Of a DNA stretch of 12,599 bases, positions 1-12,599 are shown in pieces. The number at the start of each line of letters is the position of its first letter. Within the stretch, counting starts at the first letter, position 1. Position numbers and translations under genes: made by a program. The stretch is taken from IMG/VR virus record IMGVR_UViG_3300050007_000314, positions 1 through 12,599 of that record, one strand, 5' to 3'. The DNA is from a virus. Taxonomy: Duplodnaviria > Heunggongvirae > Uroviricota > Caudoviricetes. Below the pieces are notes generated by a model that searched no databases, was not told the origin of the DNA, and was given only the letters and a program-made list of their open reading frames with translations.

Positions 1-723
1 TAAGATCGCCCACATCAGCGGCTGTCGCCGCGCCCCCATACCCGTCAGCATAGTGGTGTAGAGCGAATCTGTGGGATGTTCGTGATACTCGTCGACAATC
101 GCACAGTGCGGTGAAGCGCCGTCACCAGGGTTACCAATCAGCGGCTCAAAACGCGCGCCATCCTCTGGCCGGTTCAGGTTGGACGCATTAACCTCGATCC
201 CGAACGCTTCCACCAGCAGCGGTGTACGCTTACACATCAGGCGAGCGGGTCTGAATACTTCCCACGCCTGCTTTTCAGTTGTGGCCCCGGAATATACTTC
301 AGCGCCAAACTCGTTATCACAGGTAAAACAGTACAGCGCCACACCCGCCGAAATAGCTGATTTCCCGTTTTTACGCGGTATCTCAGTGTAAACCTCGCGA
401 AAGCGACGAAGCTTCGAGCCTTTCTGGACCCAGCCAAAGGCGCAGCACACAATAAACAATTGCCATGCCTCCAGGGTTATCGGCATCCGCTTGAATGCCC
501 ACTCTCCTTTTGTATGTGGCAATAACTGGATAAATTTCGCAGCCTTTTCTGCCATGTCTTTATCGAAACGGTAACGAAATTTCTTACTCTTTTCAGCCGC
601 CATGTCATCGATATGACGCTGGCAGGCCTGAATGACAAACTGGCACGCCGGGATTTTCCCCCGCACAACGTTGCGGGCGTATTGATTCGCGGCGTTTACG
701 TTGGGGTACGATTTCCGGCTCAT
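1..723 (-). CDS. Phage terminase large subunit (TerL), N-terminal ~240 codons; gene runs off the left edge of the window
   Basis: Minus-strand frame is open from ATG at 721-723 to position 1 with no stop. It is absent from the ORF track only because it has no stop inside the window. Translation [29 protein letters not shown]...[20 protein letters not shown]...[35 protein letters not shown] has a Walker A-like NGKS and Walker B-like IVDEYHE, typical of terminase ATPase domains. Start ATG overlaps the terS stop (ATGA at 720-723). Confidence 0.85.
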
Positions 724-1217
724 GAGTTGATCATCTTCAGGAATGGGTTAGAGGTTTTCTTCTGTCCGGCAAGGCCGATCAGGCGTTGCCGGCTGCTGGG
801 GTCAAGGCCAAGCATGGAGCCGGTAGAGCTCATCTCCGATTCCTGCTCTTTCTTTGCGGTTAGCTCAGGGTTTTTTATCTTCCCTCCCATAGCACCAGTG
901 ATAGAAAGCCCATCTCTGGCGATATTTTTAACCGCCCTGCGCCAGAACTCGTAGGCAACACACCAGCGCTCAAGTACGGCAAGATCGGTAACACACAGTA
1001 ATCCCTGTCCACATAATTCTTTTGTGGTCAGTTCCCACATGATGGCCGCCATAGGCAGGCCGTCATCCTCAGAAAACCAGTCAGGTGGTGCCACACCTTT
1101 AATCGGTGTGAATACAGGTTCCTCTTTATTCAGAGCTCGTTTGCCGGGGTTCCCTGCCAGCTCCTTGCGCGCCGTTGGCTTGGGGCGACGCCCGGAACGC
1201 CCCGCCGTTCCAGCCAT
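720..1217 (-). CDS. Phage terminase small subunit, P27-family-like (TerS)
   Basis: ORF track 720..1226. N-terminus [27 protein letters not shown] matches the recalled P27-type TerS signature. The ATG at 1215-1217 is preferred over the GTG at 1226 because AGGAG lies about 8 nt upstream of it. It sits immediately upstream of terL with overlapping stop/start. Confidence 0.8.
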
Positions 1218-1343
1218 AAGCGACACTCCTGGTTAAATTTCATTTTTCGCGGGTATAAAAATACGAGGAGGCGGGCAGTCCGGAAGGCGCGCGGTCGCAG
1301 AGATTTGACCTCCCCCTACCCTGGCTGATGATGACATTAATTC
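1218..1343. other. HNH-terS intergenic region; candidate cos (cohesive end) site
   Basis: A 126-bp non-coding gap between the HNH endonuclease stop and the terS start, where HK97-like cos phages place cos. It contains a GC-rich core (gaggaggcgggcagtccggaaggcgcgcggtcgcagag, about 1265-1302) flanked by AT-rich sequence (gggtataaaaatac). Position and composition only; no cut site can be determined from sequence. Confidence 0.3.
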
Positions 1344-1694
1344 TCACTTGAGCCGCTCGCGCGCAGTCTTCGCTGCGTGACACGACCAGCACAGGCTCTC
1401 AAGGTTGCTGTCCTCATCAGTACCGCCGTGGGCCTTCGCCTTGATGTGGTCCACGCAGGACGCCTGCTTAACTATTGCCTGCCGTAGATGGTTCTGACAC
1501 AACCCCTTGTCGCGCTTAAGTATCCGCTCCCGGATGAATTCCCACTTTGTTCCGTATCCACGCTGCTGCCGTGATTGGCCTGGCTTGTAGGACTTCCAGC
1601 CTTCACCTTTGTGATTTTCACAGTAGCCAGATGGGTCTGTTGTGGTGTTCCGACAGCCGCGAACGCGACAAGCCTTCGGTGTGCGCGGTGGCAT
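1344..1694 (-). CDS. HNH endonuclease (phage packaging-associated)
   Basis: ORF track 1344..1733. Chosen start is ATG at 1692-1694 (MPPRTPKACRVRGC...), with GGGGAG about 5 nt upstream. Cys-rich N-terminal part (CRVRGCRNTTTDPSGYCENH) and an HNH core (CVDHIKAKAHGGTDEDSNLESLCWSCH). An HNH gene next to terS/terL is a well-known arrangement. Confidence 0.85.
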   Translation of the reverse strand: MPPRTPKACRVRGCRNTTTDPSGYCENHKGEGWKSYKPGQSRQQRGYGTKWEFIRERILKRDKGLCQNHLRQAIVKQASCVDHIKAKAHGGTDEDSNLESLCWSCHAAKTARERLK

Positions 1695-1758
1695 ATTCAC
1701 TCCCCAAAAAACGTATAGCATTATCGCAGACACTCAGTGAATGCCTGCTGTAATGCCG

Positions 1759-1962
1759 CTAGTCGTCGAGTTGTAACACACCGTGCTCAAGTGACTCGGA
1801 ATAGGCAATCAACCCGGTGTACTCAGGGATAACCTCACCATCATCAGCTTCGAATTCCGGGATTGTCCCAGTGGTGATGGTGTATTTGGGCTGACCATCT
1901 TCTTTCGCAAAGGCTGCCAGGTATTCAATCTGTTTTGCTGTAAGAACTACCGTCATGTTCAT
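1759..1962 (-). CDS. Hypothetical small acidic protein (67 aa)
   Basis: ORF with ATG start and GAGGA RBS-like motif about 6 nt upstream. Product is D/E-rich (MNMTVVLTAKQIEYLAAFAKEDGQPKYTITTGTIPEFEADDGEVIPEYTGLIAYSESLEHGVLQLDD). No family recognised. Confidence 0.5.
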   Translation of the reverse strand: MNMTVVLTAKQIEYLAAFAKEDGQPKYTITTGTIPEFEADDGEVIPEYTGLIAYSESLEHGVLQLDD

Positions 1963-1985
1963 TCCTCAGTTGTTAAAAAGCCCAG

Positions 1986-2219
1986 CTATTGCGAGGCTGT
2001 AATAATTTTATTTAGGCAGTTGAGCTGAACAGACCTGTTATGCGCCAGAATGTCCCGCTTCGTCTGTTTATCCAGCACGGCAATATCATGCTCAGTAAGG
2101 TAGATGATACTTACCCAGTCACAAGCCGTGTCCGTTACTTCAGGTTTTGCGGGTAAAGTTTTCGCGCAACTCGCGGTCAACATCGTCATCAGGAAGATGA
2201 TTAACAGTCTGCTGTACAT
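1986..2219 (-). CDS. Outer-membrane lipoprotein, putative o-spanin (Rz1-like), 77 aa
   Basis: Internal ATG at 2217-2219 with AAGGAG 7 nt upstream. N-terminus MYSRLLIIFLMTMLTASC has a lipoprotein signal peptide and lipobox Cys. The gene starts inside the preceding i-spanin-like gene in another frame and extends beyond it, the classic overlapped spanin layout. No sequence similarity to lambda Rz1 is claimed. Confidence 0.5.
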   Translation of the reverse strand: MYSRLLIIFLMTMLTASCAKTLPAKPEVTDTACDWVSIIYLTEHDIAVLDKQTKRDILAHNRSVQLNCLNKIITASQ

Positions 2220-2409
2220 CCCTGGCTCCTTTTGTTGTCTCCACCCGGCGTTCTGCAACGGCTTCAGTAGCTGCTGCGCGTTCCTCAGTGCGTTGCTGGT
2301 TAGCTTTTGTCTCAGCGATATTGGTACCGCGTGACTTACCCAGACCAAAAGCACCTGCAATTGCAGCCAGCACAGCAACAGCCAGGCCGAGAATCATTTC
2401 AAGTCCCAT
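2140..2409 (-). CDS. Putative i-spanin (Rz-like), 89 aa, N-terminal transmembrane anchor plus charged helical periplasmic domain
   Basis: ATG at 2407-2409 with GAGG about 6 nt upstream, directly after the endolysin stop. N-terminal hydrophobic segment MGLEMILGLAVAVLAAIAGAFGLG is followed by a charged, helix-prone region (ETKANQQRTEERAAATEAVAERRVETTKGARD). Shorter than a typical Rz, so the call is positional and structural only. Confidence 0.45.
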   Translation of the reverse strand: MGLEMILGLAVAVLAAIAGAFGLGKSRGTNIAETKANQQRTEERAAATEAVAERRVETTKGARDVQQTVNHLPDDDVDRELRENFTRKT

Positions 2410-2416
2410 AGTGACC

Positions 2417-3031
2417 TCACACCAGTGCGGCTTTAGCTTTGGCGTAACGTTCACGGCGGTCTTTAATGCCGTTCTGCCCGCCGTTAATAATTTGCGTGAC
2501 GCGTTCCACATCCCCCGAATAGAGGAGACAACCGCGTAACGTGAAGTACCATGCTGCCGAGCGGGCCGCGTGTCGCTCTTGCGTCAATAGTTCAGGAGTG
2601 CTCACAAGGTCAAGCTTCAGCGCTGTACCGCATTTGGTATAGTTCTCTCGGCCGGTGATTTGAAGCAGGCCGCGACCGCGATATTTCCAGCCATCACCCT
2701 GGCTGTTATTCCCCATGCGGTCACCGTAAACCAGATTGGCTATTTGTGGCTGGTGAGCGACTTGTTTACCATCGACACGCCCCAGCATTTCGCTCTGATA
2801 CGGCGTCAGGCGCTTACCGAAGGTTTTCTTCAGCCCTTCAACCGAGTAGTTAAAGTTCTCTACCAGCGAGGTAAAGCCATTGGATTCATGCCCAACTTGT
2901 GCAATGAACATGGCCTGATCATTAACCGCTGTAATTCCAAACTCTTTCATTGCCGCATCAATGTGCGGAAACCAGCGCGCAGAAAGCCCGGCGCTGATAC
3001 CAGCCGCCTGCTGAAATTGTGATTGGTTCAT
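2417..3031 (-). CDS. Endolysin, glycoside hydrolase family 19 (chitinase-like lysozyme)
   Basis: 204-aa ORF with ATG start and GAGG RBS. Contains the GH19 signature region GDGWKYRGRGLLQITGRENYTKCG. Sits between the holin-like genes and the spanin pair. Confidence 0.85.
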   Translation of the reverse strand: MNQSQFQQAAGISAGLSARWFPHIDAAMKEFGITAVNDQAMFIAQVGHESNGFTSLVENFNYSVEGLKKTFGKRLTPYQSEMLGRVDGKQVAHQPQIANLVYGDRMGNNSQGDGWKYRGRGLLQITGRENYTKCGTALKLDLVSTPELLTQERHAARSAAWYFTLRGCLLYSGDVERVTQIINGGQNGIKDRRERYAKAKAALV

Positions 3032-3033
3032 TA

Positions 3034-3312
3034 TTACCTCAGATGATCAACCAGCCGCGCTACGTTGCCCCTGACGGCGACCAGCACAGACAAGAAAATA
3101 ATGTTGGCCCCGATAGTGGCCCACGATGAATAAGGGTAGATACCGCACAGATAAGCCAGCGGAACCGCGCTATAGATGACCGTAAGCAGCCACGCTAAGC
3201 GAGATATCCACGGTCGATGTCGGGAATCACCACGGCGGTAAAACATCAGGGTCAGGACTACCCCAGCGCAAAGCAGCGCATTAATTGTTGCCGACGGGTC
3301 ATTTAGTACCAC
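3034..3312 (-). CDS. Holin-like small membrane protein (92 aa), second member of a holin/antiholin-like pair
   Basis: GTG start at 3310-3312 with GGGAGG about 6 nt upstream; 14-nt overlap with the upstream membrane-protein gene. Product has about 3 hydrophobic helices (INALLCAGVVLTLMFY, LAWLLTVIYSAVPLAYLCGIY, IGANIIFLSVLVAV) and a charged C-terminus. Lies immediately upstream of the endolysin. Confidence 0.6.
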   Translation of the reverse strand: MVLNDPSATINALLCAGVVLTLMFYRRGDSRHRPWISRLAWLLTVIYSAVPLAYLCGIYPYSSWATIGANIIFLSVLVAVRGNVARLVDHLR

Positions 3313-3685
3313 CTGAACCTCCCCGGCGCGTTATCAGCGCCACCAGCGAGCCGACATCCTGATTATTCAGGAACGTCAGGATTTTGACGGCTAAAGCAGA
3401 AACGATTACGGCGCCAATGGCATCCAGTGGTTTATCACTGTAGCCGGTCGCCTGAGCCAGCTTTGAACCCACCAGCCCGGAACAAAGGATCCCCGCGATA
3501 TACGACACCAGAAAATATGCCAGCCGACGCGTTGCACTCAGGTCAGCAGCCGTTGCAATGTAAAATACAGCTCCGGCAAATGCACCAAACACCACGCCAT
3601 AATCGGTTCCGGAAAGAAATCCATAGACGCTGGCCCCCGTCAGGACACCACCAGCCAGCCCAGTACCGGAAATCGGATCGGACAT
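3299..3685 (-). CDS. Holin-like membrane protein (128 aa), first gene of the lysis cassette
   Basis: ATG at 3683-3685 with GAGGGGG RBS. Gly/Ala-rich polytopic membrane protein (GLAGGVLTGASVYGFLSG..., VVFGAFAGAVFYIATA..., LAYFLVSYIAGILCSGLVG..., AIGAVIVSALAVKILTF). Function inferred from position; no specific family recognised. Confidence 0.55.
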   Translation of the reverse strand: MSDPISGTGLAGGVLTGASVYGFLSGTDYGVVFGAFAGAVFYIATAADLSATRRLAYFLVSYIAGILCSGLVGSKLAQATGYSDKPLDAIGAVIVSALAVKILTFLNNQDVGSLVALITRRGGSGGTK

Positions 3686-3728
3686 TTAGCCCCCTCTTAA
3701 TTGCTGTAAGTCCTCTCAGAATGAGGGG

Positions 3729-3757
3729 AATAAAAAAGGCCACCGAATGGCAGCCTT
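3729..3757 (-). terminator. Intrinsic terminator on minus strand, downstream of the 79-aa ORF and upstream of the lysis cassette
   Basis: Minus-strand reading AAGGCTGCC-ATTC-GGTGGCCTT: a 9-bp stem with two G-U pairs and a 4-nt loop, followed by TTTTTTATT. Confidence 0.5.
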
Positions 3758-3792
3758 AGTAAATGTTGTGTAGTGCTTTACTGGTAAATGCG

Positions 3793-4032
3793 TTATTGCT
3801 CATGGTCTTTTAAATAGTGATGCCCTTTGGAGGTAATTTCAGTTGCTATCCACGTACCATCACCGGATCTACTCTTAACAGCATTTACTAACCCTGCGTC
3901 AGCAAGATCAGAAATAGCAAAATTTACTGTTTCCTTTGGAATGAGCGGAAGTACTGAAGACTGAACCGCTTCATGTGGACCAAGAGCATTTACGCGACTC
4001 AGAATTTCGAAATGTACAGATGTGATTTTCAT
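3793..4032 (-). CDS. Hypothetical protein (79 aa), moron-like small gene between the Q-like gene and the lysis cassette
   Basis: ATG at 4030-4032 with GGAGG RBS. Flanked by an upstream promoter-like element and terminators on both sides. Local GC looks lower than in neighbouring structural genes. No family recognised (MKITSVHFEILSRVNALGPHEAVQSSVLPLIPKETVNFAISDLADAGLVNAVKSRSGDGTWIATEITSKGHHYLKDHEQ). Confidence 0.5.
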   Translation of the reverse strand: MKITSVHFEILSRVNALGPHEAVQSSVLPLIPKETVNFAISDLADAGLVNAVKSRSGDGTWIATEITSKGHHYLKDHEQ

Positions 4033-4067
4033 AGCACTGCCTCCGGTGGCTTGTTTTGACCAGCGGA

Positions 4068-4076
4068 ATTATAACA
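4068..4076 (-). promoter_or_regulatory. Candidate extended -10 promoter (TGtTATAAT) on minus strand; possible late promoter (PR-prime-like) or the small ORF's own promoter
   Basis: Minus-strand sequence TGTTATAAT (plus ATTATAACA, 4068-4076) matches the extended -10 consensus TGnTATAAT exactly, about 35 nt upstream of the 79-aa ORF start. No good -35 is needed for extended -10 promoters. Confidence 0.35.
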
Positions 4077-4111
4077 TATTGATTTTGACGTAGATTGAGT
4101 GCCAAAAGAGG

Positions 4112-4140
4112 TTAAAGAAAAACCCGCTCACAGGCGGGTT
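4112..4140 (-). terminator. Intrinsic terminator on minus strand downstream of the Q-like gene (tR-prime-like candidate)
   Basis: Minus-strand reading AACCCGC-CTGTGA-GCGGGTT followed by TTTTCTTTAA: a 7-bp GC-rich stem plus U-tract. On the plus strand the same hairpin lacks a comparable T-tract. Confidence 0.55.
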
Positions 4141-4233
4141 TATAGAACTTTGGCAACATATCAAATATGCTTCAAATATGGCTTATTTTGTTGCATTTTG
4201 CAAGCGCGTTTGAAGGAGATAGTGAAATTTACT

Positions 4234-4944
4234 TCACATTTCTGCCACTTTGAGGGCGTCTTCTTCCTCATAGTATTCAAGAGCCATGGCCAGCGCAGAT
4301 TCATCAAGCTGGGTAAAAGCGGCCTTTAACCCAGCCCAGTGCCCTGAATAGACGCGCAACCATGTCGAACGGTCAACGCTAACCATGCGGGCCAACGCTG
4401 CACTAGCATAGTCTTTATAGGTTTCATTATTTCTGGTTGCGGCAATTTCCTGCCCTGCCAGCCATACCAGGCCAATCAGTTTCTTTACTACGCGCTCCTG
4501 AAGGGAGTTATCACCCAGGCATTTCTGATAAGTTTTCCAGACGTATTCACACATCATCACCTGGTGCTTATAGCTAAGGTCAAAACCGTAGCAGTACCGC
4601 AACCAGGCCTGCTGGTATCCACTAAGCGCGGACACTGCCCTACGCCACGGCGCGGACTCAAATTCCGCATCTTTTATCGGCGGCATTGGCCTGCGGCGGC
4701 TGCGTGTTTCCAGTACATACAGTGGCGCGGAAAGCGAGTTAACAAAGCGTGGCCCCTTCTCTCCTTCGAGTTCGACGAGGTGAATTCCACGGCGCGGGGT
4801 GGCATTTTTGTCTGCTGGTGGGTGTTCACTGAAAGCCTCAAGCTGCCCTTTTGTTCCCCCAGAGAGGTCAGGTAGCGCGCGGCGCAATTCTATTCTTACA
4901 AAATTCAGGTCTTGTTGATTCATGCTTCTTTGCGCTCCATACAC
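4234..4944 (-). CDS. Putative late-gene antiterminator (Q-like), 229-236 aa
   Basis: ORF track 4234..4944 (GTG start; alternative ATG at 4921-4923 giving MNQQDLNFVR...). The call is positional: directly upstream of a promoter/terminator interval and the lysis cassette, downstream of a DUF968-like gene, as in many lambdoid prophages. No sequence similarity to lambda Q is claimed. Confidence 0.5.
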   Translation of the reverse strand: MYGAQRSMNQQDLNFVRIELRRALPDLSGGTKGQLEAFSEHPPADKNATPRRGIHLVELEGEKGPRFVNSLSAPLYVLETRSRRRPMPPIKDAEFESAPWRRAVSALSGYQQAWLRYCYGFDLSYKHQVMMCEYVWKTYQKCLGDNSLQERVVKKLIGLVWLAGQEIAATRNNETYKDYASAALARMVSVDRSTWLRVYSGHWAGLKAAFTQLDESALAMALEYYEEEDALKVAEM

Positions 4945-5940
4945 TTAAGCTTTCGCAATTACGCCGATCGACAGCGCCCGATCCATAAAACGCAGTAGCA
5001 GCTCAAGCTGCGTACCATGCTTCTGCTCGAATGCTGGTACATCGGCGTGTAACTCGTCGTGGCACTCTCTGCACAGAGGGATCACGAAGAGGTCATGGGC
5101 TTTTGTTGCTGTACCACCCATACCGTGCCCTACGATATGGTGCGGATCATCTGCTGGCCGTCGGCAACACTCACAGGGTTGTGTTTTAACCCAGCGGGTG
5201 TACGTCTCATTTACCCAGCGGCGACGTTTTGGCCTGAGCATAAAAGATTCCGGGGACTCCGGATCGACGGTTAGCGTCAGTATTGCCTTTTGGGTTTCCA
5301 CATCCAGGCTGTCAGACCGCCGAGCTGGTAACGTATCAATCGACCTGGCTTTTTCCTGCATAATGCTGATGGCCGGCGGCATAGGTACGATGTCACTTTC
5401 CCGGTAAACAGATAATAATGGTTCGTCTGGCAACCGAAGTGCCCGTTGCGCCATTCCTTCGGTGACAGCATCAGCGACACCAGACTGAACCGCCCACCAG
5501 CAAAGCTCGGCTAAAGAGAGGGAGCGCTCTTTGTTGTGGCCAAGCCCAACCAGTACGGTATCAACAATCCATTCGGCAACATTGCTCAGCGCAAGCGCCT
5601 GTAATCTCTCCGTTGACTGACCGCGCAATTTGTTATCGCAGTGCCAGCACACCACTAACGCGCCAGGAGGATGCCATAGTGTTGTTAGCTCGGCATGATG
5701 GTAGTCAGAAACAGGGTACTGACACTTTTTAACGCGCTGACGAAGCCAGTACTCAAGCCCGGCCATACCACCAGCAGCAGTAATTACCCGTTCATCGGTG
5801 AAGAAAGTGTGAAGGCTGGCATCCTCCAGTAGCGGTTGCCGTGCATCGGGGATCCGACCAGACGGAAGCCTGGCCATGTTTTCAGGCTCACGCTCAACGA
5901 GCACACGACCTGCAGGGGTAAGTAAGGCTCTCAATGCCAA
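4945..5940 (-). CDS. DUF968-like phage protein (YdfU-like) with C-terminal Cys/His HNH-like zinc-binding motif
   Basis: 331-aa ORF. C-terminal region PCECCRRPADDPHHIVGHGMGGTATKAHDLFVIPLCRECHDELH resembles an HNH/zinc-ribbon nuclease-like motif. Placement between the Nin-like region and the Q-like gene matches recalled DUF968 genes in lambdoid prophages. Start is uncertain: TTG at 5940 or ATG at 5875-5877. Confidence 0.6.
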   Translation of the reverse strand: MALRALLTPAGRVLVEREPENMARLPSGRIPDARQPLLEDASLHTFFTDERVITAAGGMAGLEYWLRQRVKKCQYPVSDYHHAELTTLWHPPGALVVCWHCDNKLRGQSTERLQALALSNVAEWIVDTVLVGLGHNKERSLSLAELCWWAVQSGVADAVTEGMAQRALRLPDEPLLSVYRESDIVPMPPAISIMQEKARSIDTLPARRSDSLDVETQKAILTLTVDPESPESFMLRPKRRRWVNETYTRWVKTQPCECCRRPADDPHHIVGHGMGGTATKAHDLFVIPLCRECHDELHADVPAFEQKHGTQLELLLRFMDRALSIGVIAKA

Positions 5941-5944
5941 CCCC

Positions 5945-6466
5945 TTATACCGTCAGATCTTTAAATTTCTGTACGGCCTTCCCCATATCCGCCATTGCAT
6001 CCACAAACTCATCAAACTTACGGCTTGCCATTCCATAAGCCTGTAGGATTTCAAGTTTCAGAGGATCGAGTTGTTTTTTGATTTCAGCTCGGTCACCGGC
6101 CTTTTTTTCAGCTTCTTCAGCGGCGCGAATGAGGGCTTCAGCCTGCTTGCGTAATTCTTCAGGGGTCACGGTTGACTTATTCATAGTGGCTTCCTTCAAT
6201 GGCTTCGACGACGCAATAACCGGCGCCACGGATTTATGACCAAATTTAGGGTGATGCAGGGTTGTTGTCCTGCCGTCATCAGTGACACAGAGCAGGCTGT
6301 TTTCGCGGATGATTTCGATCAGGGTTTCTTTATCCTTCCGACTCAACGAGCTATAAGCTGATACCTTGTGCGTCAGATGGGTAAGAGTTGCCCCATCGGG
6401 TTGTTTCTCAACAAACCGTTTAACCCTGGACAATACTGGCTGAAGGTGCGGAGGGGTCACTCTCAC
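5945..6466 (-). CDS. Hypothetical protein (173 aa), translationally coupled to the upstream antirepressor-like gene
   Basis: GTG start overlapping the stop of the upstream gene (GTGA at 6463-6466), with a G-rich RBS-like stretch upstream. C-terminal part is a charged, helix-prone region (EELRKQAEALIRAAEEAEKKAGDRAEIKKQLDPLKLEIL). No family recognised. Confidence 0.5.
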   Translation of the reverse strand: MRVTPPHLQPVLSRVKRFVEKQPDGATLTHLTHKVSAYSSLSRKDKETLIEIIRENSLLCVTDDGRTTTLHHPKFGHKSVAPVIASSKPLKEATMNKSTVTPEELRKQAEALIRAAEEAEKKAGDRAEIKKQLDPLKLEILQAYGMASRKFDEFVDAMADMGKAVQKFKDLTV

Positions 6467-7347
6467 TGGAGCCCCCCTGCTAAATCTTTGTCGTGGGTAA
6501 AACTACCGTTCCAGGTGACCTTCATCGGAAGCTTTCCCTTCAGGTAGTTTTTGTACAGCCAGACAGCGCCTTCGCGCAGCAAGACGGGCTGGTAGGAAGT
6601 AAAGCTCACTGCAGAGTTTGGCGATACTTTACTGCTTTTCTCGGTGAGGTATTTGTCGCGGGCATACGAGCGTACACGCCACTGTGCGCTGCGGCCTTCG
6701 GGATTGTCATCGTACAGCCAGTTAGCAGAGACAAGCCAGGCACTGATCTTGGAGGTATTCACACCATTCAGACGCTTACAGAACTGTACAGGGGAAAGCC
6801 CGTCAGTGAAGAGACTCTCGAGATGCTCGATATATTCGGCCTGCTGGTGGGTGAGTGCTTCAGCCTGCTGCTTTGCCTCCATAGCGTCCGCCCAGGCTCG
6901 CGCTAAAGTAATTGGATCAGACATATTGGGCAGCATGACACCGTGGACCTCACGAAGATTGAAGTAATGATCTTCAAGCTGTTCAAAGAAGTCCCAGGCT
7001 AATTCGGTTTCAAGCATTTTCGCATGGCGGGAAGCTCCACGCTCAGTCCAAAGAATAAGTGAAGTAGTGTGTTTATTAACCACATCGCTAAATGATAGTC
7101 GGAACGATTTCAGCTCATCACCAGTGATTTTGAAGAAGTGTTTACCCTCGACAAAGCGTTGCTCGTTTCGAGCGAAGTTTTGCTGAATTCTTACTGGTGT
7201 TGTGCCGTAACCGGCAGCAAGGGAATCCGTTGTCACTACGCGTTGATTGCGATAGGTGATCACCGGAACCGACGAGTGATTAACGGAAATTACTGATGAA
7301 GTGCTATTTTCGGGCGTAGCAGTGCCCCTAACATGATGATTGCTCAT
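6463..7347 (-). CDS. Phage antirepressor/regulatory protein (Rha/ORF6N-like N-terminal domain, KilA-C-like C-terminal region)
   Basis: ORF track 6463..7452. I favour the ATG at 7345-7347 (MSNHHVRGTATPE..., GGAGAG RBS), but the ATG at 7450-7452 also has an RBS-like AGAGGTGG and would overlap rusA by 19 nt. N-terminal region VITYRNQRVVTTDSLAAGYGTTPVRIQQNFARNEQRFVEGKHFFKITGDELKSF resembles phage Rha/antirepressor N-domains from memory; C-terminal half is helical. Family assignment is from recall, not search. Confidence 0.5.
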   Translation of the reverse strand: MSNHHVRGTATPENSTSSVISVNHSSVPVITYRNQRVVTTDSLAAGYGTTPVRIQQNFARNEQRFVEGKHFFKITGDELKSFRLSFSDVVNKHTTSLILWTERGASRHAKMLETELAWDFFEQLEDHYFNLREVHGVMLPNMSDPITLARAWADAMEAKQQAEALTHQQAEYIEHLESLFTDGLSPVQFCKRLNGVNTSKISAWLVSANWLYDDNPEGRSAQWRVRSYARDKYLTEKSSKVSPNSAVSFTSYQPVLLREGAVWLYKNYLKGKLPMKVTWNGSFTHDKDLAGGLQ

Positions 7348-7433
7348 ATTCTCTCCATACTCTGATTGTTGCGACGAGCCTGCACGCCCGTTTCGCTTGC
7401 ACTTTCCGACATTACTGCCATATCGACCAATAT

Positions 7434-7832
7434 TCAACCCACAGCTGGACATATAACCACCTCTTTTTTATATGCCGTTATGGTTATCTCAACTTTTCCC
7501 TTCGGTACTATTGGTCCCCATTCCACCAGCATGCGCTTAATCTGGCTGTCGTCTTCCCAGACACCCGCATGCGTCAGCGCGTCAAACAGGGCTTTGTTGT
7601 AATTATCGATATCCCGACGGCGCGCATCCGGTGGGTACAGAGTGATTTCTACCGCTGCCAGTTCAGTCGATGGCTTCGGGAGACGTCGTAATTGCTCAAT
7701 GATCGCCACGCAGGCAGCGCTCTGGTATTTACGACCATCAGAGCTAATGAGGTGACGACCGGCCAGCGGCCCCTTGTTAGGGGCGCGCCAGTAAGTGTTC
7801 ACGCTCGGAGGAAAAGGCAGGATAAGTTTCAC
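7434..7832 (-). CDS. rusA: Holliday junction resolvase RusA (crossover junction endodeoxyribonuclease)
   Basis: 132-aa product MKLILPFPPSVNTYWRAPNKGPLAGRHLISSDGRKYQ...DIDNYNKALFDALTHAGVWEDDSQI is the characteristic RusA sequence pattern. GTG start overlaps the stop of the upstream methyltransferase (GTGA); GGGGAGAGG RBS. Confidence 0.9.
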   Translation of the reverse strand: MKLILPFPPSVNTYWRAPNKGPLAGRHLISSDGRKYQSAACVAIIEQLRRLPKPSTELAAVEITLYPPDARRRDIDNYNKALFDALTHAGVWEDDSQIKRMLVEWGPIVPKGKVEITITAYKKEVVICPAVG

Positions 7833-8707
7833 GCGGCCTCTCCCCGCATATTGCGAACAAGTTCAGAAGCTGCAGTAATGATTTCGCTGGTGGCCGTTCG
7901 TTCCAGCCAGAGTTGATTTATGTTGGCTTTCAGCTTGTTCTGCTGAGCCTCACTCAATACGTCAACGCCTTCCACTTGGTTGAACACAAGACCAACCTCG
8001 AGAGGCCAGATACGTGACTCAGTTTCCGGTGTTGCTGCTGGTTCCATGGCTGCCTGCATTGCGATTGTTTGCTCTTTACTAACGGCGAATTGAGCCAAAG
8101 CCATAAATGCCCGCCCTTTTTCCTCCAGTTCTGTGCGGTTGATATAGCTGAACCGCTCACCCCGCCACGACTTATCGAATACAGCTATGGCACCGGCAAA
8201 AAACGCGCTGGTGGGTTTCTGTTTTTCGTCAGCAGGTACAAACCACACAGGCAGATCGAACCCAATACGACCACGAATAAACATGATGTGATCGGCATCT
8301 TCCGGCCACCATGTTTCACTTGTGGCAGACTTCACCAGGTAAATATAGCGACCACCTCTTTCACGCATGTCCATGGTGTGATTCATGATGTGTGTCATAC
8401 CCGTAATCGCCTGCTTGTCGTGATACTGGGAGCGGCTATATGGAGGGTTGGCAAAAGCCGCGCCGCCCAGTTCATCCAGACGTTCAGACCAGTTCTGTGT
8501 CAGCGCGTTATCTTCGGCGGTGTACCATGCCGGACACTTCGCGTTATCGTCGTCAGCAAACAGGTCCAGAACTAATGGACCAAATAGCGCGTTGATCCCC
8601 CAGAAAAGCAGATCCGGTGTCCGCCACTGATCGCCAACTTCTTTCAATTCGTGGGCTGGTTGGCTACGTAGTGCCGCCAGCGCCTGGCAATATTTGTTTA
8701 ACGTCAT
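7829..8707 (-). CDS. Phage DNA N6-adenine methyltransferase (Dam-family) with a ~100-aa C-terminal extension
   Basis: 292-aa ORF whose ATG start overlaps the stop of the replication gene (ATGA). N-terminal two-thirds has the phage Dam-type pattern (WRTPDLLFWGINALFGPLVLDLFA ... AAFANPPYS, with the NPPY catalytic motif). C-terminal ~100 aa (RTELEEKGRAFMALAQFAVSKEQ...) is unassigned. Confidence 0.8.
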   Translation of the reverse strand: MTLNKYCQALAALRSQPAHELKEVGDQWRTPDLLFWGINALFGPLVLDLFADDDNAKCPAWYTAEDNALTQNWSERLDELGGAAFANPPYSRSQYHDKQAITGMTHIMNHTMDMRERGGRYIYLVKSATSETWWPEDADHIMFIRGRIGFDLPVWFVPADEKQKPTSAFFAGAIAVFDKSWRGERFSYINRTELEEKGRAFMALAQFAVSKEQTIAMQAAMEPAATPETESRIWPLEVGLVFNQVEGVDVLSEAQQNKLKANINQLWLERTATSEIITAASELVRNMRGEAA

Positions 8708-9561
8708 CCTCTGAACCCCGCAGGAATCGTTGTATCAACCGGACCAAAAGCCATCACATCGCGCTTTTTCGCACCCCAGTCAGCGCGTTTAGGCCGTCCT
8801 TTCTGATCCCAGCGGGTAGCGCTTTGCAGATAGCTCTCGAATTTCTTCGGGCCAAACAGCGTTTCCGGCCTCATGTACTGGTACTGCTCGTCGTTCTCGT
8901 GCCAGTGCTCATGCTTCAGGTCGATAACCAGTTGCAGGTCTGCAACGCTGTACCCCTCACGCAGTCGGGCACGGATGTTCTCCAGGGAGGTTTTTGATTT
9001 CTGATACCGGGATCCGCTGATCTGGTTCAAATGGGACAAAACCAAAATCGCCTGGTCAGTAATCACGACTTCAGGGTCTGGTTGCGCCGCAACCGGACAA
9101 GAGGGTTTTGAAGTTACTTGTGGATCTTGTGTTGATTTTACTGACGGATCCCCGCCAGATTCTGACGGGTCAAAACCGCCGTTTTTGCCAGATTTCGACG
9201 GGTCAGTTTTTGAGGCGTCAAATTTTGATGCGTCAGATTTTGACGTGTCAGAATCTGACAGTTGAGAAAATGCGGCAGCCTGAAGTTTCGCCACATTCAG
9301 ACGATACACGTTCGAAGCATTACGGTTACCATTACGGCGCTGTGTACGCGTGAGCCAGCCATCTTTTTCAAGCTTAGCGATTGCCGTTCTGATAGTGCTC
9401 GGCCCTGCGCCAAGCTGACGAGCAATAGTTTCAATGGACGGCCAGCACACCCCCTCATCGCTGCTGAAATCAGCAAGGCGAGCCATGATCGCGACACTAG
9501 ACAACTTCATGCCCGACGCCGCGCAACCATCCCATACGTAGCCGGTTAATTTAGTGCTCAT
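8704..9561 (-). CDS. Replication initiator protein (lambda O-like role): N-terminal HTH domain, low-complexity acidic Ser/Asp/Lys linker, conserved phage replication C-terminal domain
   Basis: 285-aa ORF with ATG at 9559-9561. N-terminal winged-HTH-like region (LSSVAIMARLADFSSDEGVCWPSIETIARQLGAGPSTIRTAIAKLEKDGWLTR), a central repeat linker SDSDTSKSDASKFDASKTDPSKSGKNGGFDPSESGGDPS, and a C-terminal block (ITDQAILVLSHLNQISGSRYQKSKTSLENIRARLREGYSVADLQLVIDLKHEHWHENDEQYQYMRPETLFGPKKFESYL) recalled as the conserved C-terminus of phage replication initiators. Iteron-like DNA repeats are embedded in the linker-coding region. Confidence 0.7.
   Translation of the reverse strand: MSTKLTGYVWDGCAASGMKLSSVAIMARLADFSSDEGVCWPSIETIARQLGAGPSTIRTAIAKLEKDGWLTRTQRRNGNRNASNVYRLNVAKLQAAAFSQLSDSDTSKSDASKFDASKTDPSKSGKNGGFDPSESGGDPSVKSTQDPQVTSKPSCPVAAQPDPEVVITDQAILVLSHLNQISGSRYQKSKTSLENIRARLREGYSVADLQLVIDLKHEHWHENDEQYQYMRPETLFGPKKFESYLQSATRWDQKGRPKRADWGAKKRDVMAFGPVDTTIPAGFRG
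9137..9265. repeat. Iteron-like tandem direct repeats inside the replication initiator gene; candidate origin of replication
   Basis: Plus-strand tandem units at about 15-bp spacing: GCGTCAAATTTTGAT (9215-9229), GCGTCAGATTTTGAC (9230-9244), GTGTCAGAATCTGAC (9245-9259). Looser copies lie upstream (ACTGACGGATCC at 9140-9151, TCTGACGGGTCA at 9161-9172, TCGACGGGTCAG at 9195-9206). AT-richer flank at about 9100-9140. Analogous to ori-lambda iterons inside gene O. Confidence 0.5.
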
Positions 9562-9902
9562 GATCGTCCGTTATCTCCCTGAATTTTTGCCTGAAATGCT
9601 CAAGTGGGCTGAAGCATTCGTGCGGGTAGCCATCACGCAGATAGATAACGCGCTGTGTTTCTGGCTCCCAGCGGATAACACGGACTGGCACTCCGCGGTG
9701 GTCTTTGAACCTTCGGTTAAGTTCGCGCACAGGCGTTTTGCCCTCCGGTTGTAGACCCCCACAATTGAAACCGCCCTACTGTGGTTACACGGAACCCAGC
9801 GGTTTGATAATCTGCGCTCATACCGAAACAACGGAGTACCCGAAACCGGGATCATCCTTAGTTGCGGTAGACGGTTAAAAGCCGTTAAACTGCTCATGCG
9901 GA

Positions 9903-10454
9903 TTATTTCTCCATACTCGAAGAGTTGTTCGCCAAGGCGCCCGGAGCTGCACACTCGCGGGCGTCACTCTTTTCTGGAAGGCAATAAACTCGTGAAATCA
10001 GGTTCAGGAACGTCATAAGCGTTACCCGGAACTGGTAGGCGATTTCATTCAGACTGTCCCACTCCCCTTTATCAACTACACCATCATCGATGTATCGACG
10101 GTATGCGTTGACCAGATCCCCAAGCCTGCCCACCAGCTCAGCCAGCTTTAAGCCAATTTCTTCGTTCTCTGTTTCTGGTGCTGCGCCAGGGATATGAATC
10201 CCGTTATCTGTTTGACGAGAAAACGCATCTGCTATGTAGCTAACACCGGCGGCTTTCTGTAGCACCATCGCCCATCCCATAGGGAAGATCTGATCCCCAT
10301 CCACACGAAGGCGGTTAAACAATGCGTTCTCTGTCACGCCCAACCATTCCGCAGCCTCAGCATATCCACCAGGCAGATCGGTAATCGTTTTTTTAATCGC
10401 TACCACCAGCCAAGAAGGCTGACGTTCAACTTTCCAAATAGGTTCGTTACCCAC
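9903..10454 (-). CDS. HTH regulator in the cII position (cII/YdaT-like, putative), 183 aa
   Basis: ORF track 9903..10559 would overlap the cro-like gene by 77 nt. I prefer the in-frame GTG at 10452-10454 with AAGGGG 6 nt upstream (MGNEPIWKVERQPSWLVVAIKK...). Helix-turn-helix-like segment GGYAEAAEWLGVTENALFNRLR. Gene order cro-like then this gene then replication initiator parallels lambda cro-cII-O. Function inferred from position and the HTH only. Confidence 0.4.
   Translation of the reverse strand: MGNEPIWKVERQPSWLVVAIKKTITDLPGGYAEAAEWLGVTENALFNRLRVDGDQIFPMGWAMVLQKAAGVSYIADAFSRQTDNGIHIPGAAPETENEEIGLKLAELVGRLGDLVNAYRRYIDDGVVDKGEWDSLNEIAYQFRVTLMTFLNLISRVYCLPEKSDARECAAPGALANNSSSMEK
9936..9977 (+). 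terminator. Possible plus-strand intrinsic terminator antisense to the 3-prime end of the cII-like gene (OOP-like antisense RNA terminator candidate)
   Basis: Plus-strand GGCGCCCGGAG-ctgcaca-CTCgCGGGCGTC (stem about 10 bp with a 1-nt bulge) followed by ACTCTTTTCT. The T-tract exists only on the plus strand. No convincing promoter was found upstream, so this is low confidence. Confidence 0.25.
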
Positions 10455-10482
10455 GGTTAACCCCTTAATTCTGTGGTTACAA

Positions 10483-10725
10483 TTACGCTGCTGAATCTTT
10501 AATCTTTTGAAAAATATCAGGACGTAATTTCTCTCTTGAAACTCCGGTGACCTTTTCAATTAGCGCTGATAGTTTTGCTGGTGGTTTTTTCTCTCTGTTC
10601 AGCCAGTTCCAGACCTGCTGTTGTTTCACTAACCGCCCAGAACTAGCGGTAAGCTTGCGCGCTAACTCTGATTGGCCACCAGCCAGAGCGATTGCCTCTG
10701 AAAGGGCTAACTGCTCGGGAGTCAT
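10483..10725 (-). CDS. Cro-like HTH repressor (YdaS-like, Cro/CI family), 80 aa
   Basis: ORF track 10483..10743 (TTG). I prefer the ATG at 10723-10725 with AGGAG 7 nt upstream (MTPEQLALSEAIALAGGQSELARKLTASSGRLVKQQQVWNWLNREKKPPAKLSALIEKVTGVSREKLRPDIF). The GGQS-x-LAR-x-L ... V-x-QW ... LRPDI pattern matches recalled YdaS/Cro-like proteins. Divergent from the cI-like gene across an operator-rich intergenic region. Confidence 0.7.
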   Translation of the reverse strand: MTPEQLALSEAIALAGGQSELARKLTASSGRLVKQQQVWNWLNREKKPPAKLSALIEKVTGVSREKLRPDIFQKIKDSAA

Positions 10726-10861
10726 AGTTTTCTCCTGTATCAATACATAAAAGTTGTTGCCGATAGAGATTATACAACCTCAACAACTTTTATCACAACT
10801 TTTAGGTGTTGGAAAGCTAAAACATAAAGTTGTAATCTCACCGTAAATAAGGGGGGAAGTT
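10726..10861. promoter_or_regulatory. OR-like divergent promoter/operator region between the cro-like and cI-like genes
   Basis: Four copies of an 8-bp half-site in inverted orientations: AAAGTTGT at 10750-10757 and 10826-10833, ACAACTTT at 10783-10790 and 10795-10802. Minus-strand promoter candidate: -35 TTGTGA, 18-bp spacer, perfect -10 TATAAT (plus 10769-10774). Plus-strand candidate for cI: TTGGAA (10809-10814), 16-bp spacer, TGTAAT (10831-10836). Both overlap the half-sites. Confidence 0.6.
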
Positions 10862-11548
10862 GTGAACACACTGGCGGAAAGACTGAAAGTTGCGAGAGAA
10901 AAAACAGGGTTAAGCCAAGCTCAACTCGCTGAATCAATAGGTGTTTCTCAACAATCCGTAGCAAAAATAGAAAACGGAGATACGTTGCAACCGCGAAAGA
11001 TAAAAGAAATCGCAAATGTATTAGGCGTTAGCCAAAAGTGGTTGCAACTAGGCATTGAGGAAAATGCTTCACTTTCTGATTTTGTGGTTGGAGAGGCTGA
11101 AAGTGCCAGTTTAGACCCTGCCATTTTCGCTGACATACCAGTACTAGATGTAGAGTTATCAGCAGGAAATGGTTGTGAAGCCGAAATTGTAGAGTCTGTA
11201 ATTGACTGGTTTCCTATCCGAAGAATGGATCTAAGGAAAGCTGGAGTCAGCGCTTCAAATGCTAGGATCGTAAAAATTTGGGGGAACAGCTTATTGCCAG
11301 TTCTCAATAACGGCGATCATGTTGCTGTTGATATCGCACAGACAAACCCTATTCGAGATGGCGATTTATACGCTGTCAGAGATGGGGTCCTGCTAAGGGT
11401 CAAAGTGCTAATAAACCAACCTGATGGTGGTTTAATTATAAGAAGCTTCAACAAAGATGAGTATCCAGATGAAATACTCACCTTCAATGAACGCCGCGCA
11501 AGAATTCATGTTATCGGCAGGGTGTTTTGGTCATCACGTTCATGGTAA
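10862..11548 (+). CDS. cI-like prophage repressor (N-terminal XRE-type HTH, C-terminal S24 LexA-like autopeptidase domain)
   Basis: 228-aa ORF with GTG start and a G-rich RBS (AAGGGGGG) about 5 nt upstream. N-terminal HTH LSQAQLAESIGVSQQSVAKIENGD; C-terminal S24-like region with the Ser motif in KIWGNSLLPVLNNGDHVAVD and a downstream Lys (LLRVKVL). Only substantial plus-strand gene in the window; AT-rich. Confidence 0.9.
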   Translation: MNTLAERLKVAREKTGLSQAQLAESIGVSQQSVAKIENGDTLQPRKIKEIANVLGVSQKWLQLGIEENASLSDFVVGEAESASLDPAIFADIPVLDVELSAGNGCEAEIVESVIDWFPIRRMDLRKAGVSASNARIVKIWGNSLLPVLNNGDHVAVDIAQTNPIRDGDLYAVRDGVLLRVKVLINQPDGGLIIRSFNKDEYPDEILTFNERRARIHVIGRVFWSSRSW

Positions 11549-12421
11549 TACGCCAAATAACATTTCCTCTGAGATAATTTTTAGCTTTGCGCCATTATCG
11601 TCGCGATAGCTAACAGCTTTCTCTATCTTTCTCCCGTGGCTGGAAAATTTCCAGTCTCTGGATGATAGGGTTCCGACTACAAGGAAGTCCAGTTTTTGGG
11701 TAATTCCATTACTTATTTTCCCCCCTGCACTTTTGATCCGTTCCTCTACCACCGCTCGCTTACCTGCCATAAAGGTACCCGTTAAACAGTAGGTTTTGTC
11801 CGTAAGATCAACGACTACATTATTATCAATCGGTAGCCTCGTCGCCAATCCATCAACAACACCGCTATCTAGATCGCATCCAGTAAAGTCAACAAGTGCT
11901 TTATGTAGAGTTTCGCTTTCTTCTGGAGTTATTACCCCATCGTTAAGGATATCTTTTATTAGAATGTACAAATCCTTCCCTGGGTAGTTACTCTTAAGAG
12001 CCCCATTTTGTGTTAACCACCAGTCGAGATATCTAATTTCATCTTCCGTCAAGGTCCTATCCGAGATCAGCCCTTTACACAATCCACTAAGAAGATGTAG
12101 ATCCATTTCAGCAGAATAAAAATCAATTCCAGGAATATCTAAAATTTCTCTTTGGATTTTTGTCAGACTGTTTTTGAGTTCTTTTCTTTCTTCCTCTGTA
12201 ATCACCCCATCAGCTAAAATATCTGAGACCCTCGCCGATAGACTCTTAATAACCCCATTTCTTATAATTTGATTTGCTTCAAGTAGCCATGTGTCAAGGT
12301 AAAGAACTTCCTCATCTCTTACCACCCCATCAGCAACAATACCATCAATGATACTGATTAGGTTCGCAAACAACTTATCTCTATTGTGTGTGTAATTAAA
12401 TACGTAAAGCTTGTCTTCCAT
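11540..12421 (-). CDS. Accessory protein of unknown function: N-terminal TerB-like repeat region plus C-terminal BRCT-like domain (293 aa)
   Basis: ATG at 12419-12421 with AGGAGG 5 nt upstream. Four repeats of an ADG-type helix motif (IIDGIVADGVVRDEEVLYL, VSDILADGVITEEERKEL, GLISDRTLTEDEIRYL, IKDILNDGVITPEESETL) resembling TerB domains. C-terminal DKTYCLTGTFMAGKRAVVEERIKSAGGKISNGITQKLDFLVVG...AKLKIISEEMLFGVL resembles the BRCT domain of NAD-dependent DNA ligases. GC roughly 35-40 percent by eye. Convergent with cI, 9-nt 3-prime overlap. Confidence 0.7.
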   Translation of the reverse strand: MEDKLYVFNYTHNRDKLFANLISIIDGIVADGVVRDEEVLYLDTWLLEANQIIRNGVIKSLSARVSDILADGVITEEERKELKNSLTKIQREILDIPGIDFYSAEMDLHLLSGLCKGLISDRTLTEDEIRYLDWWLTQNGALKSNYPGKDLYILIKDILNDGVITPEESETLHKALVDFTGCDLDSGVVDGLATRLPIDNNVVVDLTDKTYCLTGTFMAGKRAVVEERIKSAGGKISNGITQKLDFLVVGTLSSRDWKFSSHGRKIEKAVSYRDDNGAKLKIISEEMLFGVLP

Positions 12422-12476
12422 ACAGCCTCCTCTTTTTTATACATCCTTGCATTCATCTCATCTTCAATCAAACCAC

Positions 12477-12522
12477 ATAAAGTTGTTGACATTGTGTTTC
12501 ACCACAACTAAATTACAACTTA
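12477..12522 (+). promoter_or_regulatory. PL/OL-like promoter-operator: plus-strand promoter pointing out of the window, overlapped by repressor half-sites
   Basis: -35 TTGACA (12486-12491), 17-bp spacer, -10 TAAATT (12509-12514). Half-site copies overlap it: ATAAAGTTGTTG (12477-12488), ACAACTA (12504-12510), ACAACTT (12515-12521). ACATAAAGTTGT occurs here and in the OR region. Confidence 0.5.
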
Positions 12523-12599
12523 AAGGTGTTAACCAACAGCGAACAGGCAGGACGCACATGAAGTAGCCGCCGGTGGCATATGAATAACCGGATGATTCC

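Follow-up and report, generated by a model that had tools for sequence, protein, structure and literature searches.

A 15-bp dyad as the probable operator of a 434-like cI repressor in a prophage immunity region with a BRCT accessory gene

Which protein reads a short repeat that brackets the cI-like gene of a tailed phage, and what would it do there? The question arises from a stretch of 12,599 nucleotides (positions 1 to 12,599 of IMG/VR virus record IMGVR_UViG_3300050007_000314, Caudoviricetes), which was analysed at its full length and is called the window below. An 8-bp motif, AAAGTTGT/ACAACTTT, recurs there between a cro-like and a cI-like gene and again 1.7 kb away, beyond an accessory gene whose product carries a BRCT domain. 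An earlier note on this DNA took the copies for operators of the cI-like repressor, in an immunity region built like the left and right operator regions (OL and OR) of phage lambda. The positions of the sites, their conservation and their co-variation with repressor type support this interpretation. We suggest that the motif is very probably the operator half-site of the cI-type repressor of the prophage, with dyads placed at the early promoters.

Between cro and cI, exact copies of the 8-mer stand at 10750 (plus strand), 10783 (minus), 10795 (minus) and 10826 (plus), just as had been described. A fifth is found at 12479 (plus). These five, all of them at OR or OL, are the only exact copies in the 12.6-kb window; the expected count is 0.41, and five were reached in 0 of 200 dinucleotide shuffles. 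The recurrence claimed for 12477-12521 holds as well: one exact copy is accompanied there by one-mismatch copies at 12515-12522 (TAAGTTGT, minus strand) and 12522-12529 (AAAGGTGT), with ACAACTA at 12504-12510 as an additional degenerate copy. The extended form ACATAAAGTTGT, said to occur in both regions, lies at 10822-10833 and 12475-12486. The earlier note would have given up its interpretation if the motif were equally dense elsewhere. In 22 related loci, after dereplication, there are 28.6 copies per kb within OR and OL and 0.05 per kb over the remaining 160 kb, so this objection does not hold.

Loci for comparison were fetched with the repressor as query (86 of them), and others were added through the BRCT protein. 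Relatives bearing the motif come from Citrobacter, Escherichia, Serratia, Proteus, Providencia, Plesiomonas and Salmonella, and the positions of the motif relative to the cI start are constant across repressors that are 59-99% identical.

By its sequence, the 8-mer is the half-site of a 15-bp dyad with the consensus ACAACTT-N-AAGTTGT (ACAACTTNAAGTTGT). When the window is scanned with this consensus, exactly four sites have two or fewer mismatches in 14 (0.03 are expected per shuffle); there are 0 sites at three mismatches, and 10 at four or fewer versus 5 expected. The four sites are these:

10795-10809, no strand: operator dyad OR-A, ACAACTTTTAGGTGT, 2/14 mismatches to ACAACTTNAAGTTGT, kept in all relatives
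10819-10833, no strand: operator dyad OR-B, AAAACATAAAGTTGT, 2/14 mismatches, identical in 16/19 representative loci
12472-12486, no strand: operator dyad OL-A, ACCACATAAAGTTGT, 2/14 mismatches, ACAACATAAAGTTGT in Proteus and Providencia relatives
12515-12529, no strand: operator dyad OL-B, ACAACTTAAAGGTGT, 1/14 mismatch, ACACCTTAAAGTTGT in relatives

Among relatives, OR-A varies only at dyad positions 6-12. OL-B has its single mismatch in the left half in some lineages and at the symmetric position of the right half in others (ACAACTTAAAGGTGT versus ACACCTTAAAGTTGT); many relatives have a further exact 8-mer at OL, 43 bp downstream, so that ACACCTTAAAGTTGT stands there in place of the ACAACTTAAAGGTGT of the window. 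A mismatch that swaps between halves is the behaviour expected of a two-fold symmetric site. Further, the partners of perfect half-sites were scored against the consensus in 16 relatives, and 60 of 119 scored 5-6/7 while the remainder scored 3 or less; only 1.6% of random 7-mers score 5-6/7. Because the scores fall into two groups, two classes have to be distinguished, true dyads and orphan half-sites. The operator motif of the earlier note can thus be kept, with the correction that its functional unit would be the 15-bp dyad, to which only four of the copies belong, and that the other copies are orphans. Over the dyad variants, the half-site opens with A (34/38), C (32/38) and A (36/38); position 4 is degenerate (A21/C14/T3 of 38) and position 5 is a strong C.

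Two other registers were tried. The 14-bp register of phage 434 (ACAA-N6-TTGT) was rejected, since neither OR nor OL has such a site. A 12-bp register for ACATAAAGTTGT (ACA-N6-TGT) was rejected on account of OL-A in Proteus and Providencia: it reads ACAACATAAAGTTGT there, and the upstream half is therefore a degenerate ACAACAT in the 15-bp register.

The dyads lie at three predicted promoters, namely the early-right one (PR), the one for cI (PRM) and the early-left one (PL):

10769-10798, minus strand: PR, -35 TTGTGA (10798-10793), 18-bp spacer, -10 TATAAT (10774-10769), promoter scan 10/12
10809-10838, plus strand: PRM-like promoter for cI, -35 TTGGAA (10809-10814), 18-bp spacer, -10 TAATCT (10833-10838), a conserved block
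12486-12514, plus strand: PL-like promoter, TTGACA, 17-bp spacer, TAAATT, promoter scan 10/12

The promoter scan recovered both the minus-strand candidate that the motif cluster was said to overlap, TTGTGA(10798)-18-TATAAT(10769), and the strong plus-strand promoter claimed at the distal site, TTGACA(12486)-17-TAAATT(12514). The PRM-like promoter was missed by this consensus scan of the window. Among relatives, the -10 element of PR reads TATAAT, TATTCT, TACAAT, TATGAT or TATATT, that of PRM TAATCT, TAACCT, TAGTCT, TAAAAT or TAGGCT, and that of PL TAAATT, TAGATT, TAATAT or TAGCAT. Variation that always keeps T1, A2 and T6 argues that the three promoters are real.

OR-A shares 4 bp with the -35 element of PR, and the PRM -35 begins on its final base. 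The OR-A centre (10802) falls at about -43 of PRM (start assumed 7 nt after the -10), a position like that of lambda OR2; 31 bp separate it from the base on which the PRM -10 begins. OR-B sits within the PRM spacer and touches the -10, at about -19 and 24 bp from OR-A centre to centre, in a position like that of lambda OR3. At the left, OL-A overlaps the PL -35 by its last base, whereas OL-B covers the predicted PL start point with its centre 43 bp from that of OL-A.

Beside the dyads there are conserved half-sites that stand alone:

10751-10757, plus strand: orphan half-site h1, AAGTTGT, an invariant island amid variable flanks in 17 relatives, partner 3/7
10774-10780, plus strand: orphan half-site h2, ACAACCT, abutting the PR -10, ACAAC invariant in 17 relatives
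10783-10789, plus strand: orphan half-site h3, ACAACTT, in the PR spacer, invariant in relatives, partner 1/7
12504-12510, plus strand: orphan half-site ACAACTA, abutting the PL -10, conserved in 17 relatives

Of these, h1 would lie at about +5 to +11 of the predicted PR transcript, and partner-half scoring found no dyad partner for h2. The window has one more copy listed among its orphans, AAGTTGT at about 10857-10863, which reaches into the GTG start codon of cI. GTTGTG at the cI start does not change among 17 close relatives, even though the Shine-Dalgarno region directly before it does; loci from Plesiomonas and Salmonella lack AAGTTGT at this place. This copy could be a half-site or could reflect a constraint on translation start.

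Could the functional unit then be a lone half-site of 7-8 bp, bound also where copies form direct or everted repeats, with the dyad as just one arrangement? The four or five conserved orphans would fit this. So would their geometry: direct repeats are 12, 9 and 11 bp apart at h3/OR-A, h2/h3 and OL orphan/OL-B, which places a direct copy of the left half upstream of both OR-A (h3, 12 bp) and OL-B (12504-12510, 11 bp), and core elements at PR and PL are flanked by everted pairs, AAGTTGT-N16/17-ACAAC. The C repressor of phage P2 binds direct repeats and offers a precedent (PMC2995052). We nevertheless consider such a unit improbable. The bimodal partner scores (60 of 119 at 5-6/7) and the symmetric swap of the OL-B mismatch are properties of dyads, and the DNA-binding domain resembles that of the 434 repressor, which binds dyads (PMC1636474). 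Orphans match dyads in conservation among close relatives, but their spacing shifts in Proteus, Providencia and Salmonella, and the ACAACTA near the PL -10 is missing from the Plesiomonas locus L097. A repressor of the P2 C type itself, short, without an S24 domain and with operators made of direct repeats only, was rejected: dyads are present here and the protein combines HTH_3 with S24. Under the dyad interpretation, the orphans may be bound by Cro, or may give additional contacts to repressor that binds cooperatively.

Two genes of the region encode proteins that might read the sites:

10862-11548, plus strand: cI-like repressor, 228 aa, Pfam HTH_3 1.6e-14 and Peptidase_S24 1.5e-13
10483-10725, minus strand: cro-like gene, 80 aa, YdaS-family helix-turn-helix (HTH), Pfam YdaS_toxin 3.3e-15, phrog_35

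The best match of the N-terminal domain of cI in the Protein Data Bank (PDB) is the 434 repressor (1per_L, 2e-12), with residues 4-67 aligned without a gap. Both proteins have Gln-Gln-Ser as the first three residues of helix 3, and Gln-Gln is kept in 26 of 26 distinct N-terminal-domain sequences among relatives. In 434, according to what is reported of Aggarwal et al. 1988, the first base pairs are recognised by Gln28 and Gln29, and position 4 by Gln33. It appears well grounded that the Gln30-Gln31 pair of this 434-like HTH would read the outer ACA. At position 5, a contact from Lys to G may be supposed. The operators of 434 are 14-bp dyads, in which the outer ACAA is conserved and directly contacted (PMC1636474).

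It is conceivable that the sites are read chiefly by the YdaS-family Cro-like protein, or by another factor, and that cI recognises something else. The sites follow Cro as closely as they follow cI. The presumed recognition helix of Cro starts with Gln residues as well (VKQQQVWNW), and it gives a weak local match to 434 Cro (E = 0.036 in a single comparison). On the other hand, the cI helix fits the ACA core far better, OR and OL contain no other repeated motif that cI could use, and cI and Cro share operators in the lambdoid switches studied, so that the two readings hardly exclude each other. We regard this possibility as very improbable and take cI as the principal reader.

The distribution of conservation favours operators at these places. 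In 17 dereplicated representatives, the invariant or nearly invariant blocks are 10750-57, 10769-78, 10782-10835, 12468-91 and 12504-30, and the bases between them, promoter spacers included, vary freely; at the same threshold, only 8% of cI third-codon positions are conserved. Five further loci with an identical repressor, taken with 6-kb flanks, have dyads with two or fewer mismatches at the same four places only. In 14 loci whose BRCT gene is internally deleted, the distance from the cI start to the OL cluster shrinks to 874 bp (versus 1617 bp), and the cluster is still beside PL. ACAACTT sites are absent from OR and OL of the heteroimmune ST64B, SfV and e14 (E. coli K-12); other repressors carry other motifs, and the motif therefore changes with the repressor. 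That the motif is kept by common descent or by overlap with promoter hexamers alone can hardly be credited: several copies do overlap -35 or -10 elements, and cro, cI and the BRCT gene are inherited together as one module, but the bases between sites (promoter spacers, the 16 bp between h1 and h2) are free to vary while the sites are fixed, copies occur in both orientations and at non-promoter positions, and the OL-B swap preserves the dyad rather than the sequence.

Several observations weigh against cI dimers on dyads as the full account. Firstly, with OR-A and OR-B 24 bp apart, cooperativity of the kind seen between lambda OR1 and OR2 would shut PRM whenever PR is shut. Secondly, the -10 element and spacer of PR are covered only by orphans, hence there is no lambda-like OR1. 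Thirdly, conserved orphan half-sites, four of them outside the cI start, have no dyad partner, and a model of dimers on dyads alone therefore leaves part of the conservation unexplained. Fourthly, cI, Cro and the BRCT gene vary together in every relative, which makes the comparative data silent on which protein reads the sites. Finally, the relatives were partly retrieved with the recognition-helix peptide QQSVAKIE and are biased towards an unchanged helix. As for a third, OR1-like dyad over the PR -10, the best candidate has at least 4/14 mismatches; a four-mismatch site at 10743 has an unconserved left half, and the candidate was rejected.

How such a switch might work can be proposed from position and homology, from which binding, cooperativity, looping between OL and OR, activation and cleavage are all inferred. 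A repressor dimer would bind the 15-bp dyads, each HTH reading an outer ACA. At OR-A, in the OR2 position, it would repress PR and activate cI. At OR-B, in the OR3 position, it would exert negative autoregulation of cI, and this dyad is likely to be the first target of Cro. In a lysogen, the repressor would thus keep PR and PL off and would sustain, then limit, its own synthesis; from the placement of OR-A, OR-B, OL-A and OL-B it follows that both early operons should be off and cI on. The second operator cluster is 1.7 kb distant, which makes OL-OR looping conceivable. In the lytic state, Cro would occupy the same sites. Self-cleavage of the S24 domain near Ala101-Gly102, stimulated by RecA in the SOS response, would flip the switch; Ala101-Gly102, Ser143 and Lys181 of a self-cleaving S24 domain are readable in the cI-like protein. 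LexA boxes were searched for, and none was found within the immunity region.

The genes around the switch are those expected from the earlier note, which had guessed a cI-like and a cro-like gene. The cI-like protein combines HTH_3 with Peptidase_S24; the cro-like gene, of the YdaS family, heads an operon with cII/YmfL-like, replication and methylase genes. The cro-like gene begins with ATG at 10725, behind a Shine-Dalgarno sequence GGAGAA at 10730-10735, and is the first gene of the early-right operon. It is followed on the minus strand by a CII/YmfL-like gene, a replication gene and a Dam methylase, and relatives keep this order on through RusA and DUF968 genes to an antitermination gene. 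From PL, the early-left operon runs to xis/int in relatives.

What remains of the bracketed interval is the accessory gene, together with a promoter that we propose for it:

11540-12421, minus strand: accessory gene, 293 aa, two helical bundles and a C-terminal BRCT domain, Pfam BRCT 6.7e-7, phrog_3989 2e-119
12443-12471, minus strand: proposed promoter P_acc, -35 TTGATT (12471-12466), 17-bp spacer, TGC plus -10 AAGGAT (12451-12443)

The gene was correctly placed within the interval; it appears to be more than a passenger there, being a fixed partner of the repressor with a putative promoter that abuts OL. It adjoins this cI type in all loci examined, and cro-cI-BRCT forms a fixed three-gene module across Enterobacterales and Plesiomonas. 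The gene is convergent with cI and the 3´ ends overlap by 9 bp, therefore transcripts from PRM and from the accessory gene must collide or overlap. The closest relative of the protein, at 98% identity, is from Citrobacter freundii. An AlphaFold2 model of medium confidence (mean predicted local distance difference test, pLDDT, 68.5) has two four-helix bundles and a BRCT domain; with this model Foldseek identified the BRCT domain alone, the nearest solved structures being the BRCT domains of RFC1, LigA and XRCC1. The helical bundles carry repeated DGxxxxEE motifs. PADLOC returned a single weak partial match, to the candidate model PDC-S48 (1.3e-6). Some databases misname the protein "NAD-dependent DNA ligase". 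In one lineage (our loci L072-L085, for example L075) the gene has an internal deletion, about 680-880 bp after the cI start. This lineage retains the start region and the last ~45 codons, and its putative promoter reads GGC AAGGGT instead of TGC AAGGAT.

P_acc was missed by the consensus promoter scan of the window. Its hexamer blocks (TTGATT and TG(C/T)AAGGAT) are conserved around a variable spacer, also in the Providencia, Plesiomonas and Salmonella loci, and OL-A lies between its -35 element and that of PL. The distance from the OL-A centre (12479) to the first base of the P_acc -10 is 31 bp, equal to that between OR-A and the PRM -10. The routes from OR-A to cI and from OL-A to the BRCT gene in fact share one plan, with the dyad at positions 1-15, the -35 at 15-21, the -10 at 39-44 and the start codon at position 68 or 66. 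This shared plan hints that repressor bound to OL-A would activate the BRCT gene in the way proposed for PRM. We put forward, tentatively and with more doubt than confidence, that OL is a second two-way control region, in which cI at OL-A activates a weak extended -10 promoter of the BRCT gene. Under this proposal, cI would turn the gene on in lysogens, and induction would turn it off. Its presence beside this repressor type from Escherichia to Proteus and Plesiomonas would make it an integral, repressor-dependent part of the immunity module.

If this is so, the BRCT gene might serve, for example, as a lysogen-only defence or a sensor of DNA ends. The accessory gene would be tied to lysogeny without co-transcription with cI, and the orphans and the 43-bp OL spacing would represent an operator design distinct from those of lambda and 434.

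Past PL, the right edge of the window cuts through a further conserved element:

12535-12599 (cut by the window end), plus strand: 5´ part of a structured leader RNA, covariation model 69.8 bits

The RNA is ~65 nt long and starts ~20 nt past the predicted PL start; a full copy is found at 8085-8155 of locus L001. A closing helix and two hairpins make up its structure. One stem has three covarying pairs (CCGGT/ACCGG, CCTGG/CCAGG, CCCGA/TCGGG, CCCCA/TGGGG), and the closing helix has one, its outermost (G-C versus A-U); the flank past GATTCG differs between loci. The leader follows PL in 53 phage records (ST64B, SfV, SfII, SfIV, mEp460, ZF40 and others), whatever their immunity type, and occurs also in e14 of E. 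coli K-12, between ymfK and ymfJ. Rfam gave no match in the window or the PL leader. The leader has no BLAST similarity to the HK022 early region, and its covariation model finds nothing there. Identity with HK022 put was rejected, as each locus has one leader copy, after PL and none after PR, without put similarity. No N-like gene follows the leader in the loci examined. It may be a put-like or nut-like antitermination element. In locus L091 (~7700-8175), beyond the right end of the window, ~450 nt between the leader and the first gene of the PL operon are without a called gene. A long GC-rich hairpin (CTGGCGG...CCGCCAG) followed by CCTTTTTC was read there by eye, unlisted by the scan; it resembles an intrinsic terminator, through which early-left transcription would have to pass.

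The operator map proposed here would apply to an immunity type often met among prophages of Citrobacter, Escherichia, Serratia, Salmonella and related genera, and it predicts which prophages are homoimmune. It also supplies parts, namely a repressor, a 15-bp operator and three or four promoters. The phage collection (INPHARED) has no genome with this immunity region and no cI above ~45% identity; the closest repressors in it are the cI proteins of Stx1 phages and one 44%-identical fragment from a Salmonella phage. A search for near-identity among phage genomes matched only 60 nt of the leader, and the literature search found no paper on this operator or on a BRCT gene beside cI.

Compared with lambda, the likeness lies in the order cro, OR, cI ... 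OL/PL, in dyads like OR2 and OR3 that are 24 bp apart, and in accessory genes placed between cI and PL. The lambda-like layout claimed at the outset therefore stands for its two operator clusters at early promoters, though each region has two dyads and not the three of lambda. Unlike in lambda, the PR -10 has no OR1-type dyad over it, the core promoter of PL is flanked by OL dyads with a spacing of 43 bp, cI has a leader with a Shine-Dalgarno sequence, and the accessory gene is convergent with cI and has a putative promoter of its own. Operator sequence and length are unrelated to those of lambda.

The interval between cI and PL is a recognised hotspot of lysogen-expressed genes (10.1101/2020.07.13.199331). 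Lambda rexAB and bstA of BTP1 occupy the same position, directly downstream of the repressor gene. They are co-oriented with cI and thought to share its promoter, whereas the gene described here is convergent, with an apparent promoter of its own abutting OL-A, and encodes a BRCT-type protein with a weak match to a PADLOC candidate.

The likeness to 434 is closer. The half-site starts with ACA(A), positions 1-3 fit, dyad operators are found at divergent PR/PRM and at PL, and the C-terminal domain is LexA-like. Position 4 is degenerate here, position 5 is C, and the equivalent of 434 Gln33 is Lys. The dyad has 15 bp (ACAA-N7-TTGT) as against the 14 bp of 434 (ACAA-N6-TTGT; PMC1636474), and with this extra base pair it cannot strictly be called a 434-type operator. 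Each region has two dyads and orphans in place of the three dyads of 434, and Cro is of the YdaS family, unlike 434 Cro. The system thus offers a natural variant of the 434 recognition problem, with the same Gln-Gln head, a dyad longer by 1 bp and Lys for Gln33.

Phage SH2026Stx1 has a cI homologous over its full length (42% identity) and operators that are likewise dyads of the form A-x-AAC ... GTT-x-T. Its helix 3 reads SQPAIQK where the window has SQQSVAK, that is Gln-Pro versus Gln-Gln, its dyads have 14 bp (ATAAC-N4-GTTAT) with the half-site ATAAC versus ACAAC, and it has an N-like gene and no BRCT gene. These dyads stand in OR and before N (2385-2510 and 4800-4880 of its locus, L100). 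ATAAC with Gln-Pro and ACAAC with Gln-Gln would make a natural specificity pair.

With e14, SfV and ST64B, the window shares a backbone of YmfL/cII-like gene, divergent Cro-cI, PL leader RNA and early-left genes of the YfdP/YfdQ type. These three have repressors that are unrelated or distant, their repeats are of the GTACC type (SfV and e14) or the TTGCGCAA type (ST64B), and the BRCT gene is missing. Taken together, these comparisons place the switch clearly in the lambdoid cI/Cro class, with a reading head like that of 434; it is ordinary and well supported, the only unusual features being the promoter at OL and the orphan half-sites.

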